From NCBI GenBank assembly GCA_000004695.1, contig CM000153.2, positions 4,512,001-4,576,000 on the forward strand: 64,000 nucleotides of DNA, in the 5' to 3' direction. Positions 24,016-40,764 of this stretch are shown here, one piece after another. Position numbers and translations under genes: made by a program. Source of the stretch: Dictyostelium discoideum (Eukaryota). Positions within the stretch are counted from its first letter, which is position 1. Each line of letters begins with the position of its first letter. A model generated the notes under the pieces. The model was not told the origin of the DNA and did no database searches. It was given only the letters and a program-made list of their open reading frames with translations.

Positions 24016-25272
24016 ATGGGTACACAAAATACTTTATTTGAATTTATTAAAACCATTACTCCTTCAAAAGAATATAATGATAAAGAAAAAGATCAATTAC
24101 TCCAAGAGATTTTACCATTAATAATTGGTAAATTAGTTAAAATTGGTGATGATGTATGTATAATATTTTTTTATTTATTATATATTAAAAAAAAAAAAAA
24201 AAAAAGAATTACTAATTTTAATTAAAGATTTTAAAAAGTACTGGAAAAAATTCACATGATCAATTTATGCCACCAAATAAAAAGTTACCAGCCATTACTA
24301 TTAAAGATTATTTATGTAGACTAATGAAATATTCTCCATGTTCAAAAGAATGTTTTATTTCATCCCTTTTATATATCGATAGACTTTTATTAGAATGTGG
24401 CCTTTCCATTAATTCTTATAATATTCATAGAATTTTAATTACTACTTTACTAATTTCAACAAAATATTTAGATGATATGTAAGTATATATAAATTATTAA
24501 CTTGGTATTATTATAAATTAATTTTTACTAATTTGTTTAATTTATTTAATTTTTTTTTTTTTTTTTTTTTTAAAGATTTTATAATAATGAATTTTATTCA
24601 CAAGTTGGTGGTGTTGGACTTAAAGAAATGAATACCTTAGAATTGGATTTCTTAAAACTTTTAAAATTTTCAGCATTTTGTCCAATACCATTATTTAATG
24701 AATACCAAAAAGAGATGGAGAATACTAAATCAAGATTCTTACTTGGCCCAAATCATCCAATAAATCAAATTAATATAATAACCACAATTAATAAATTACC
24801 AATTTCAATTATAAATAATAGTTCGCCATCATCTTCGCCAAGAAATTCTTCTTCATCAAGTTGTATTTCAACACCATCATCATCGAATCAAACTGTACCA
24901 AATTCTCCAACAAATGGTTCTGCAATTGTTTCTTCTCCAAATATAAATGTAAATTCAAATAATGGCAATACCGCTTCCGTTGTTCCACAATCAAATGTAA
25001 TAATTAATAATAGTAATAATAATAATAATAGTAATAATAGTAATATTAATACTAACAATAATAATAATAATAATAATAATAATAATAGTAATAATAGTAG
25101 TAATAATAATTCCCCAATAACTTTACCAAATAATAATAATAATAATAATAATAATAATAATGGGTCAAATAGTTTTAATACGTTCCAAAGGCGTGGAAGT
25201 TGCGATTATGAAACCCGCTTGCCATCTCAGACCAATGAAAAGTCAACATTCCATACCAATTGCGCCGCTTGA
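24016..25272 (+). CDS. PHO80-like (Pcl/cyclin-U type) cyclin, 3 exons, about 361 aa
   Basis: The exons are 24016..24153 (donor GAT|gtatgt), 24228..24478 (acceptor ttaaag|ATT, donor GATGATAT|gtaagt) and 24576..25272 (acceptor ttttaaag|A). The spliced protein reads ...LPAITIKDYLCRLMKYSPCSKECFISSLLYIDRLL...INSYNIHRILITTLLISTKYLDDIFYNNEFYSQVGGVGLKEMNTLELDFLKLLKF. This matches the PHO80-like cyclin box (ITI..YLeRI.KY...S..CfV.AlIYLDR...N..N.HRLlIT.v.VAaKflDD.YYNN.yYAKVGGis..EmN.LE.dFL). The C-terminus is S/N-rich low complexity. Confidence 0.8.
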
Positions 25273-27634
25273 TTTAAAAATGAACAAAAAAAAATTACCA
25301 CCAGAATCATTTTTATTAAAAAAAAATATTACTATTTGCCTTTATACAATCATACTTTTGGCAATCTTTTCATTTAATATTGTAAATAGACTTTCAAATC
25401 CTGCCACTAAAATTTTTAATTAACAATCCATCAACACTCCTCAACCCATCATTCAATTTCAAAACCACTCATACATTCAAACAAATATACATATACAAAC
25501 ACCATTAAAATTAATAGAATAATTATTATTACTATTAATATCTTCTTACCATTTTTTTCCCTATACCTTCCCCCCAATTTAATTTAATTTTGTAAAATCT
25601 TTTTTTTTTTATTTTTTTTTTTTTTTTCTCTCCCCCAACATTTTTTTTCATTCAAAATAAATGACACCTTTAATTTATATAAAAACTACCAATGTACAGT
25701 TCATCTTGTAAAATAATGACTAAAGATTATAAAAAAAAAAAAAAAAAAAAAAACTAAACATTTTAAAAAAAAAAAAAAAAAAAAAAAAAATCAATAAATA
25801 AAAAAAATTTAATTATTTCTTTTTTTTCTAAGCAATTTTTTTTTTTTTTTAATTTTAATTTGGAATTTTATAAAAAGTAATATATATAAATATAAAAATA
25901 AAAATAAAAAACCTGATCATAATTAAATATTTTTAATTATTTATAAATTAATTAGTCAAAAAAAAAAAAAAATTAAAAAAAATTTACATTTTTAATATTT
26001 AATATTGATAATAATTTGGTTTATTTAAATTTACAACAGTTTAGCAAATTTTTATTTTTTTAAAATATATTTTAAAAAAGATTTTTAAGCGAATAAAAAA
26101 AAAAAAGATTATTTGAAAATTATATATATATTATGCTGGCGAATTATTTTAAAAATAGAATTATAAATTTTGAAAATGGATTAATAAAAAAATAAAATTT
26201 ATGGTCTGAAGAATTCTCTTTGGTAAATTCTGGTTACTTCATTTAATGTATAAATTGAGTTATTGTTACAATTATTTGATAAAATAGTTCTATTTTTTGA
26301 TGAAGATGATGATGATGATGATGATGAGATTGAAACTAATGATTCTATTGAAATTCATTTAAAAAAAAGAAAAAAGAATTTTTAAAAGGGAAAAATAGGA
26401 AAAAAGAAAAAGGATAAAAAAAAAAAAGATAAAAGTAAAAAGTAAAAAAAAAAAGTAAAAAAAGTAAAAGTTTTGAAAAAAAAAAAAAAAAAAAAAAAAA
26501 AAAAAAAAAAAAATTAATATCATGATATGATAATTTCATTGCATTTCTAGATTGTTTGGGCATGTGGTTGAAGATAGAAAGATTATCCAAAAAATAAAAA
26601 AAATGTATCCAAAGAAAAAAAAAAAAAAATTGGGATATCCAAAATTTTAAAATTATAAAAAATAAAAAAGAAAAAAAAAAAAACCTAAACTTGCCTATAT
26701 TATCTAAGGCTCTTAATTAAATTAAATCCAAAATTTTTAACTCATAAAAAAAATATAAATAATCAAGTCATTGTTACAAATTTAAAAAAAAAGAAAAGAG
26801 AAGAAGAGTTGATCACCATGATCACATACTGAATAACATTTTTGATTCTTTTTAGTGGATTAAATAAGTTAAATTAAAAAAAGTAATTTTAAAATTGTAA
26901 ACTGCTATAAAACTTGAGAAATTTATGAAAAAATTAAATTTTTAAAAGAGAAGAGATTCTTTTATTTTTTTAATAGAGATTATTAAATTTGAAAAGAAAA
27001 GAGGGATAAAATATTGTTTAATTAAAAAAATATATTAAATATATTATTAAAGTATTTTTTTTTTTTTTAAAATTGTTGTTTTGGATTTATATTTGAAATG
27101 AATGAAATTTTTAATTAATTCAATTTGTTATTTATAGGTTTTTATTTTTATTTTTTTATTTTTTTATTTTTTATTTTTTTAAAATTATTTAATAAAATTA
27201 ATAATTTAAAATGTTTTGTTTTATTTTATTTTTTTTAATTCAACAATTAACTCTATACTTGTATCAAAAAGATTTTACGTTCTACCAATTTTATTATAAA
27301 AGATAGTAGAAGTACTTGTAAAAAATTGGAGAAAAATCAATACAACATAATTTTAAATAAATAAAAAAATTCAGTAATTTCCATTTTTTTCGATTATTTT
27401 TTTCATTGATCCCCATTTATATTTAATTTACTAGGCATTTTTTATTATTATGTGATATAAATAAAAAATAACAATAAAAGTTAAATCTAAAAAAAAAAAT
27501 TAAACTTTTGATTTTTTAAAATATATTTATAATAAAAGGTTTTTTTAAATGTCACCACAATATCTTTTATGATGGGGTCGGGTATGTTAATTACAAATTA
27601 ATTTTTCTTTTTTTTTTTTTTGTTTTTTTTTTTT

Positions 27635-27734
27635 NNNNNNNNNNNNNNNNNNNNNNNNNNNNNNNNNNNNNNNNNNNNNNNNNNNNNNNNNNNNNNNNNN
27701 NNNNNNNNNNNNNNNNNNNNNNNNNNNNNNNNNN
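27635..27734. other. Assembly gap (100 N)
   Basis: A run of N characters. Confidence 1.
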
Positions 27735-38830: not shown

Positions 38831-39259
38831 GGATTTTATATTTTTAAAAAAAATTTTAAAATAAGATATTAACCAAAAATTTATAATTTAAATAATAAAG
38901 ATAATTCTTATTCCAAATAATAATATATCATTAAAAATAATAACAATATTGAAGTAGTAATATTAATATAATAATCTTTTAAAAAAAAAAATTAAAAAAT
39001 TAAAAATTAAATATTTTATTTATTTATTTATTTTTTTTTTTTTTTGTTTATAAAATTCCAAAACACATTTTAAATTTATAAAATACATTTTATTTTATTT
39101 TTCTTCAACCTTTTATAATTATTTAAAAAAAAAATAATTTAATACTAAAATTATAAAATTGGTTCAAAATATTCAATAATTTCAACATCAACCACTACTA
39201 TTCCTTCAACACCACATTATAATTCATTAAATAAACAATATACAAAATCAAAGTCATCT

Positions 39260-40764
39260 TTGAATTTAAATACCAGTAATTTAAATAATAATAATAATAA
39301 TAATAATAAAATGAATAATATTAATAACAACAATAATAATAATTATTATCAAGATAGAAATGGTGGAGGTGGACCAAATAATAATACAAATAATAATAAC
39401 CACCAAAACCATCATCACAATAATAATCATACTCACCATAATAATCATAACAACAGCCATCATCATCATCATCATCAACAAATATCAACTCAATTCTCTG
39501 GTCCAATTCCAATCACATTTTTATCAATTTTAAAAGAAGGTAAAATTCAATTGGGTGAAATTTCAAATTCTTGGGGTGAAAATGGAGATTGGCTATTAAG
39601 ATCTTTAGTAATGGCAATAAATCAAATGTTATCTGTAAATGATCAGGTATGTATTATTTATTTTATTTAATTAATTATATTTAATTTATTAATAAATTTT
39701 TTTTTTTTTTTTTTTTTTTTTTTTTTTTTTTTTTTTTTTTTTTTTTTTTTTTATATTGATAATATTAGTTTCCAAATAACCATTCTCAATTTTTACCAGA
39801 ACATATGAAATTACCCATGATTACCATTGAAGGATATATCTCTAGAATTATAAAATATTCGCCATGTTCAAAAGAATGTTTCATCATTATATTAATGTAT
39901 ATTGATAGATTAATTCAAAAAAGAAATTTCATTGTAAATAGTTATAATATCCATAGAATTTTAATCACCTGTGTTTTGGTTGCTGCAAAATATTTAGATG
40001 GTAATTATTGAAATAATAAATAATATTATAAATAACAACAATAATAATATACATTAATATTATTACTATTATTAAGGAATATATATTAATACTAACATAA
40101 TAATTATTTTTTATTTTTTATTTTAAAAAAAAAAGATATTTTTTATAATAATCAATTTTATTCCCAAGTTGGAGGTGTTAGTGTTAAAGAAATTAATGTG
40201 ATGGAATTAGATTTCTTAAAATTATTATCATTCGATGTCAGTGCAAATACTGATGTGTATTCTGTATATTTAGAATTCTTTGAAAAATACACTAAAAAAT
40301 TACAATTGAGTTTAAACTTTCAACCAAATACCAAACTATTACCATCCCCAATCCCAATTGAAAACCTTGTAAATACTAAAAAAAACAATAATCATACAAA
40401 CATTAATAATATTATGAATAATATTAATAATAATAATAATAATAATACCACTACCACATCATCTAATAAAAATATAACCCCAATTGTAAATAATAATAAC
40501 AATAACAATAATGCTTCAAGTAATATTATACTCAAAACAAATAGATCAAATAGTATTAGTAGTATTGAACAAAATAATAATAATAATAATAATAATAATA
40601 ATAATAATAATAATAATAATAATAATAATAATAATAACAATACTAATAATAATAATAATAATAGTAATGAAGAAGAAGAAACGAATTCTGGAGATAATTC
40701 AAAAAACAATAGCAATAATTCCACCTATCACCATCTTCCATTTCGATATCCACTCGTTGCCTAA
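39260..40764 (+). CDS. PHO80-like cyclin, paralog 2, 3 exons, about 415 aa
   Basis: The exons are 39260..39646 (donor CAG|gtatgt), 39769..40000 (acceptor aatattag|TTTCC, donor GATG|gtaatt) and 40136..40764 (acceptor aaaaag|AT). The spliced protein reads ...LPMITIEGYISRIIKYSPCSKECFIIILMYIDRLIQKRNFIVNSYNIHRILITCVLVAAKYLDDIFYNNQFYSQVGGVSVKEINVMELDFLKLLSF. This is colinear with the 24016 gene, and both introns sit at the same positions. The N-terminus is N/H-rich and the C-terminus has poly-N. Confidence 0.8.

Follow-up and report, generated by a model that had tools for sequence, protein, structure and literature searches.

Probable ancient paralogy of two PHO80-like cyclin genes with long upstream regions in Dictyostelium discoideum

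Two genes encoding PHO80-like cyclins are found about 15 kb apart on the + strand of a 64,000-nucleotide stretch of the Dictyostelium discoideum genome (contig CM000153.2 of assembly GCA_000004695.1, positions 4,512,001 to 4,576,000; the whole stretch is referred to here as the window). The sequence is approximately 80% A+T and contains runs of Asn codons. Gene 1 (24016-25272) and gene 2 (39311-40764) each contain two introns, and each lies downstream of a long region in which CA-rich boxes are present. The locus therefore raises the question of whether genes, introns, upstream regions and boxes were all inherited from one duplication event, as proposed in a first-pass annotation of the sequence, or whether these resemblances have separate origins. 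The explanation that we consider probable is that the two genes are members of a small, ancient PHO80-like family (the Pcl/cyclin Y group) with a common exon-intron plan, that each is preceded by a long, maintained divergent spacer, and that the boxes, which resemble binding sites of the transcription factor GBF, are generic. The first-pass annotation is partly supported, its observations being partly right and its interpretation largely wrong in the specifics.

Assignment of both genes to the family was as first annotated: the products match the PF08613 (PHO80-like cyclin) profile far above the gathering cut-off of 21, gene 1 with 120.9 bits (E = 8.2e-35) and gene 2 with 123.6 bits (E = 1.2e-35). 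Their cyclin boxes had been described as near-identical, but BLASTP gives just 49% identity (68% positives) over 164 residues. The product of gene 1 is 91% identical to its counterpart in D. firmibasis, 76% to that of Polysphondylium violaceum and 70% to that of Tieghemostelium lacteum (class A), and the product of gene 2 is 84% identical to that of D. purpureum, 83% to P. violaceum, 73% to T. lacteum, 67% to Acytostelium and 61% to Heterostelium (class B). Identities across classes are approximately 45-54%, and the Cavenderia relatives of both cyclins are more distant (approximately 40% identity). A neighbour-joining tree built on 222 columns resolved four classes of dictyostelid cyclins. Class B, with members from Cavenderia, Acytostelium, Heterostelium, Tieghemostelium, Polysphondylium and Dictyostelium, is a clade with 100% bootstrap support, and class A (bootstrap 66-82%) is sister to class C, not to gene 2. 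The two copies are not each other's closest relatives, since each has closer orthologues in all of the sampled genera except Cavenderia. Because the classes of the tree and the pattern of orthologue identities span the dictyostelid groups, the split between gene 1 and gene 2 predates the dictyostelid radiation, and the genes are very old paralogues and not the products of a fresh duplication. They represent two of at least four cyclin classes already present in the last common ancestor of dictyostelids.

Intron positions and phases were read from genomic DNA for nine further genes of seven other species. In gene 1, exon 1 (24016-24153) is followed by a 74-nucleotide intron (24154-24227, GTATGT..AG, phase 0) located after GDD; exon 2 (24228-24478) encodes the first half of the cyclin box, including PF08613 matches; intron 2 (24479-24575, 97 nucleotides, GTAAGT..AG) is in phase 2 within the Ile codon of DD-I-FYNN; and exon 3 (24576-25272) encodes the remainder of the cyclin box, an Asn/Ser-rich tail, an RRGSCDY motif and a C-terminal NCAA. 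In gene 2, exon 1 (39311-39646) and exon 2 (39769-40000, with PF08613 matches) are separated by a 122-nucleotide intron in phase 0 after NDQ (39647-39768), and intron 2 (40001-40135, 135 nucleotides, GTAATT..AG), in phase 1 within the second Asp codon of D-D-IFYNN, precedes exon 3 (40136-40764), which encodes the rest of the cyclin box, an Asn-rich tail and a C-terminal FRYPLVA.

Both introns had been reported to share phase and position, which is correct for the first and incorrect for the second. Intron 1 is congruent between the genes (phase 0, with the junction of D46 and I47 aligned by BLASTP to that of Q112 and F113). In all four dictyostelid classes an intron in phase 0 occurs right after GD[DK] or ND[QE], and the site and phase found in gene 1 recur in the class A genes of D. 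firmibasis, P. violaceum and T. lacteum. On this comparison, intron 1 is an ancestral intron of the whole family. Intron 2 interrupts gene 1 as GAT GAT AT/gtaagt...ag/A TTT and gene 2 as GAT G/gtaatt...ag/AT ATT TTT, so that the site in gene 2 is 4 nucleotides upstream of that in gene 1 while the encoded DDIFYNN is unchanged. The phase-2 form is shared by the class A genes of D. discoideum, D. firmibasis, P. violaceum and T. lacteum, and the phase-1 form is found in class B of D. discoideum, D. firmibasis, D. citrinum, D. dimigraforme and P. violaceum, as well as in class D of Cavenderia (C. fasciculata). Intron 2 is absent from class C of P. violaceum and class A of Acytostelium. Intron 2 is ancestral in place, with the site in the class of gene 1 lying 4 nucleotides further downstream, and the offset is old, class-specific and stable within each class among the species examined. 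Either intron sliding or loss followed by regain nearby could account for it. A duplication that preserved structure is therefore right in the broad sense that the genes are paralogues with an inherited exon-intron layout, and wrong in that the duplication is ancient and intron 2 is shifted.

The model of gene 1 (three exons and two GT-AG introns) predicts a product of 361 residues, 100% identical to XP_002649130.1 ('cyclin-related 2 family protein', D. discoideum AX4), so that the extent of 24016-25272 first given for it is exact. Gene 2, also with three exons and two GT-AG introns on the + strand, predicts a product of 398 residues. It had been placed at 39260-40764; locus, strand and end were correct, but position 39260 is a TTG within the 5' leader and the ATG is at 39311, followed by NYYQDR and QQISTQF motifs in exon 1 that are common to the orthologues. 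In a second D. discoideum assembly the syntenic locus has a called gene of 398 residues, whose sole two-intron GT-AG solution gives an identical protein, and the called genes of D. firmibasis, D. citrinum and D. dimigraforme include intact orthologues. Homology searches returned no class B cyclin from D. discoideum or D. firmibasis, and gene 2 was considered as an unannotated gene or pseudogene; this was rejected on the basis of the identical gene call in the second assembly and the intact orthologues of sister species. Absence from those searches is not evidence, because they missed genes that are called in both species.

The surroundings of the two genes differ. Upstream of gene 1 is a gene with a DG1062_N domain (14380-16203), and upstream of gene 2 is a TALE homeobox gene (approximately 32.6-33.4 kb); the interval between the two cyclins holds a GATase_4 gene in addition to this homeobox gene. 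By blastn, the two upstream regions have nothing alignable beyond AT-rich low complexity and CA runs, and the longest informative word common to both is a 14-mer, CACACACTCACACA, present in opposite orientations (22885 on the + strand, 37675 on the - strand). The flanks were not co-duplicated, and the pair is not a segmental duplication. A two-gene segmental duplication was also considered in P. violaceum, where a minus-strand gene of approximately 1160 residues follows both cyclins, and was rejected because the two genes showed no similarity by tblastx or blastn. The adjacency of class A cyclin and GATase_4 gene is old, being found also in T. lacteum, and the divergent pair of TALE homeobox (Homeobox_KN) and class B cyclin genes is present with a 4.5-kb spacer in P. 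violaceum. The latter microsynteny may reflect shared regulatory DNA.

The intergenic regions upstream of both cyclins are long, as first noted (about 7.8 and 5.8 kb, described there as unusual for the genome). The region between the DG1062_N-domain gene (- strand, ATG at 16203) and gene 1 measures 7812 nucleotides (16204-24015), and that between the homeobox gene (- strand) and gene 2 measures 5905 nucleotides (33406-39310). None of the other intervals among the 14 between genes of the window reaches either length, and the median is 1.27 kb. No open reading frame (ORF) of at least 100 residues was found in the former and just one, of low complexity (37235-37606), in the latter; ARAGORN found no tRNA in the whole window, and no Rfam family reached its gathering score. 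The syntenic D. firmibasis region for gene 1 is 8.1 kb long, without a called gene, and is colinear and alignable, with conserved blocks. The equivalents of the gene 2 region are gene-free and 5.1-5.8 kb long in the second D. discoideum assembly, D. firmibasis, D. citrinum and D. dimigraforme. Further afield, the upstream lengths are 3.7 kb (class A) and 4.5 kb (class B) in P. violaceum and 2.9 kb for class A in T. lacteum. In these two species the class A cyclin has a different, same-strand neighbour upstream and yet its upstream DNA has stayed long, which suggests that the cyclin itself needs a large regulatory region. Each cyclin gene lies behind a long, gene-free, evolutionarily maintained divergent region with many conserved non-coding blocks, one of which (36214-36302) passes a four-species criterion of at least 18 of 20 identical columns in every window.

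Long upstream regions with multiple promoters have been documented for the Dictyostelium genes acaA and srfB (PMC2952602, PMC3819988). The cyclin genes resemble these in having kilobases of gene-free upstream DNA, in which discrete blocks are conserved and, in the case of gene 1, a non-coding 5' exon with its intron is likely; they differ in that the multi-promoter structure is known for acaA and srfB and predicted from sequence for the cyclins. By analogy, the long regions most likely contain developmental promoters that are complex or multiple. Both being head-to-head spacers, part of each may serve the neighbouring gene, and the divergently transcribed neighbours probably share these promoters or divide them with the cyclins.

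Upstream of gene 1, a block conserved in four species (23502-23726, + strand) begins with ATAGATTCACATATTTTTCAAACTC and ends at a conserved AAG/GTAA donor, and is followed by a stretch (23727-23931) with a GTAATT donor kept in four species, a TACTAAC-like branch site at approximately 23820 and a AAAAATAG acceptor. These signals suggest that gene 1 has a non-coding 5' exon followed by an intron in the 5' untranslated region (UTR). The + strand has a strong excess of C over G from 21500 to 24000 (for example, 62 C and 13 G at 23501-24000), and the five CA boxes upstream of gene 1 are all in the sense (CA) orientation, as they are in D. firmibasis. This skew and the uniform box orientation may indicate that the transcription start of gene 1 is located far ahead of its proximal 5' exon. 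Farther upstream, a non-coding block of 60 nucleotides (22652-22711) is identical to D. firmibasis at 59 positions, compared with a regional average of 66%, and contains a perfect palindrome, CTCTTTAT-ATC-ATAAAGAG. It may be a transcription-factor site; a structured RNA was considered and rejected, the fold of 22645-22715 being no better than those of shuffled sequences (z = -1.29) and no Rfam family being matched. Upstream of gene 2, a stretch of about 150 nucleotides immediately before the ATG (39112-39267) is near-invariant in four Dictyostelium species and includes an 82-nucleotide block by the 18/20 criterion. The upstream frame in phase with gene 2 is open across it but contains no ATG, and the stretch is probably a constrained core promoter and 5' UTR.

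The CA-rich boxes reported for both upstream regions are present, at 22.25-23.6 kb and 37.0-37.7 kb. Those upstream of gene 1 (22254-22266, 22440-22446, 22866-22901, 23085-23098 and 23580-23589, within 22254-23589) all read CA on the sense strand; those upstream of gene 2 (37018-37032, 37188-37196, 37280-37286, 37541-37553, 37589-37606 and 37656-37690, within 37018-37700) are of mixed CA/GT orientation. GBF is required for cyclic AMP-induced expression of prestalk and prespore genes (PMC6598861), and its response element, (T/G)G(T/G)G(T/G)G(T/G), typically occurs as closely spaced pairs (PMC2257962). The boxes match this consensus, on the complementary strand in the case of CA, and closely spaced pairs are present in both clusters (22866-22890 with 22893-22901; 37541-37553 with 37589-37595; 37662-37668 with 37671-37679). 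The window contains 118 KGKGKGK matches, approximately 5-fold more than in shuffled sequences (23.6 +/- 5.3), although about 20 of the 118 are contributed by a stretch (38440-38790) of smeared homopolymers (TTTGGGGGGGTTTTTGGG...GGACCCCCCCC). The second D. discoideum assembly has ordinary AT-rich sequence there (GTGTTATTCTGTTATTAATTTTTTATAAATC...) between identical flanks, and the stretch looks like low-quality base calling in the reference.

With overlapping matches merged, near-homopolymer matches removed and the low-quality stretch dropped, 13 boxes were counted in 16204-24015 (1.66 per kb) and 11 in 33406-39310 (1.98 per kb). Other non-coding DNA in the window has 1.21 boxes per kb. For the non-coding DNA as a whole the density is 1.2-2.0 per kb, with single short intervals ranging from 0 to 5.5, whereas coding DNA has 0.29 per kb and a promoter-less convergent spacer at 25.3-30.3 kb has 0.40. 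The cyclin upstream regions are not significantly richer in boxes than the other non-coding DNA of the window (24 in 13.4 kb versus 23 in 19.0 kb, binomial p=0.11), and 1-kb windows with at least three boxes occur at nine places, some of which (5.3, 10.15, 17.1, 31.8 and 45.0 kb) are upstream of genes unrelated to the cyclins. Cyclins of three classes were compared in P. violaceum, where their upstream regions have 2.2-6.0 boxes per kb, and the loci as a whole 1.6-3.0. The boxes had been presented as a feature of these cyclins, which would not hold if their density were similar elsewhere in non-coding DNA, and that is essentially what was found. They are instead a feature of the window's non-coding DNA in general, the promoter-less convergent spacer excepted, and not a signature that links the cyclins by descent; in this genome they appear to be a general attribute of promoter-bearing intergenic DNA.

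Conservation of individual boxes is uneven. Of the cluster upstream of gene 1, the boxes at 22866-22890 (23 of 25 positions) and 23580-23586 (6 of 7) are kept in D. firmibasis and the others are not; upstream of gene 2, four species agree at every position of 37626-37650 and 37673-37700 (TGTGTGTGAGTGTGTGAACAAACAAATA) but not in the boxes at 37018-37032 and 37541-37553. The boxes resemble the G boxes and CA-rich elements of post-aggregative promoters in consensus, in their close pairs or runs, and in their concentration outside the promoter-less convergent spacer, but many consist simply of (CA)n, and as a class they show no preferential conservation. The boxes at these loci plausibly include functional GBF-type sites, and both cyclins may then be under GBF control and developmentally regulated.

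Several alternative explanations deserve consideration. If a relatively recent local tandem duplication had copied a cyclin gene together with its regulatory architecture, then introns, long regions and boxes would all be similar by common descent. The proximity of the genes on the same strand, their two introns in comparable places, the long CA-box-bearing regions in front of both and the shared 14-mer would fit such an event, but it is very improbable given that identity is only 49%, that each gene has closer orthologues throughout Dictyostelia, that the intron 2 sites are class-specific and 4 nucleotides apart, that the flanks lack alignable similarity, and that the upstream neighbours differ, with unrelated GATase_4 and homeobox genes in between. 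Moreover, in P. violaceum, T. lacteum, A. subglobosum, H. album and C. fasciculata the class A and class B cyclins are found on separate contigs. It is also possible that the intergenic regions are not long promoters but hide unannotated genes (small ORFs, non-coding RNAs or degraded mobile elements), as the strongly conserved blocks far from either gene (22652-22711 against D. firmibasis, 36214-36302 in four species) and the strong C>G skew at 21.5-24 kb might suggest. This too we regard as improbable, if less so than a recent duplication: the sole ORF of at least 100 residues is of low complexity, tRNAs and Rfam families at gathering score are absent, the fold of 22645-22715 does not exceed that of shuffled sequences, and no gene is called in these regions in four or five annotated relatives.

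Two other explanations are less easily set aside, though we consider each of them rather unlikely. The long regions might mainly serve the divergent neighbours, the DG1062_N-domain and TALE homeobox genes, with the cyclins using short proximal promoters. Both regions are indeed divergent head-to-head spacers; a box cluster at 17.1-17.65 kb, kept in D. firmibasis, is only about 1 kb from the DG1062_N-domain gene; and the conservation of the homeobox/cyclin pair with its spacer as far as P. violaceum would be expected of a transcription-factor gene with large regulatory needs. Nevertheless, the class A cyclins of P. violaceum and T. lacteum retain 3.7 and 2.9 kb although the gene before them is another one and on the same strand, and the DNA within 0.3-1.8 kb of the cyclin ATGs contains conserved blocks as well as a likely 5' exon and intron. 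The boxes, for their part, might mostly have arisen by neutral slippage, in the manner of microsatellites, as (CA)n/(GT)n in AT-rich DNA, and have no regulatory role here. Many are pure dinucleotide runs whose length varies between species, several (for example, 23085-23098 and 37018-37032) are missing from D. firmibasis, and as a class they are no more conserved than the surrounding non-coding DNA. Neutral slippage is harder to reconcile with the 3- to 5-fold rarity of boxes in the convergent spacer and in coding DNA relative to the remaining non-coding DNA, with the location of some boxes in conserved blocks (37673-37700 in four species; 22866-22890 in D. firmibasis) and with the identity of the motif as a characterised transcription-factor element (PMC2257962).

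Some observations weigh against the preferred explanation, in which old paralogues lie behind maintained spacers with generic GBF-type boxes. A spacing of 15 kb is unlikely by chance for a family of approximately 4-6 genes, and may reflect an old tandem origin with linkage kept since. The background for the box densities is one 64-kb window with a hand-made division into coding and non-coding DNA. Among columns within boxes, 40% are identical in four species upstream of gene 2, compared with 43.5% overall, and box conservation upstream of gene 1 is 55.8%, compared with 66.2% overall, so that many boxes could be products of neutral slippage.

A more far-reaching combination, which we regard as doubtful, is that intron 2 slid between class A and the phase-1 classes B and D (six species), that this was fixed before the split of groups 3 and 4 and kept since, and that both cyclins are targets switched by GBF through multi-promoter regions. 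If this were true, GBF control would tie a nutrient-sensing kinase of the Pho85/Cdk5 type to the multicellular programme. Dictyostelium was already known to have PHO80-like cyclins, GBF-type boxes and long upstream regions with multiple promoters, and gene 1 was already annotated; the conserved 4-nucleotide offset of intron 2 between paralogue classes is the sole point that is mildly unusual. The findings have little significance beyond curation, where their value is in the corrections made (ancient paralogy, the intron 2 offset, generic promoter boxes), together with a four-class framework for dictyostelid PHO80-like cyclins, based on intron states and C-terminal motifs, that may be used in studies of Cdk5-type developmental signalling.

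As for the proteins themselves, the best solved relative by sequence (phmmer against PDB sequences) is yeast Pho80 (E = 1.5e-15), with cyclin Y and Pcl10 next. The fold comparison was made with gene 1 only: an AlphaFold model of residues 1-209 (mean predicted local distance difference test score, pLDDT, 88.4; predicted template modelling score, pTM, 0.85) gave as top Foldseek matches in the PDB the Pho80 structures 2PMI and 2PK9 (E approximately 1e-5, template modelling scores 0.50-0.58), Pcl10 (4KRD) and cyclin Y (9R2N). The likeness to yeast Pho80/Pcl thus lies in the strong PF08613 match, the top rank among relatives in both sequence and fold, and a single-core helical cyclin box. The differences are an identity of only approximately 25-29%, long Asn/His/Ser-rich tails added to the Dictyostelium proteins, and class-specific C-terminal motifs (RRGSCDY...NCAA; FRYPLVA) that Pho80 lacks. 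Metazoan cyclin Y (a partner of CDK14/16) and the P/U-type cyclins of plants and protists belong to the same 'cyclin Y-like / PCL' group (PMC3923393), and cyclin Y is the second-best solved match. Because Pcl and cyclin Y cyclins are partners of CDK5-subfamily kinases, and because D. discoideum has members of the cyclin Y group (PMC3923393), both proteins most likely associate with a kinase of the Pho85/Cdk5 type, of which they would be activating and targeting subunits; we adopt this partnership as a working inference. No functional study of Dictyostelium PHO80-like or 'cyclin-related 2' cyclins was found in a literature search.

The RRGSCD sequence occurs in classes A and C (in gene 1, within 25168-25272) and fits the protein kinase A consensus R-R-x-S. 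The C-termini end in NCAA (class A), GWVA (class C), and PQPNCVA or PLVA (class B; 40720-40764 in gene 2). The Cys of these motifs is at position -3, and they therefore do not constitute a CAAX box. Several dictyostelid PHO80-like cyclins that contain the cyclin domain only bear the public name 'Non-receptor tyrosine kinase (spore lysis A)', which is probably an annotation transfer error.

Downstream of gene 1, a gene-free, convergent (tail-to-tail) spacer of 5 kb (25273-30260) separates it from the GATase_4 gene. This spacer, in which box density is 0.40 per kb as given above, has a G+C content that falls to 8% and contains a long repeat of the TAT/ATA type (29371-29838); in sister species it is likewise gene-free, with a length of 4.3-5.2 kb.

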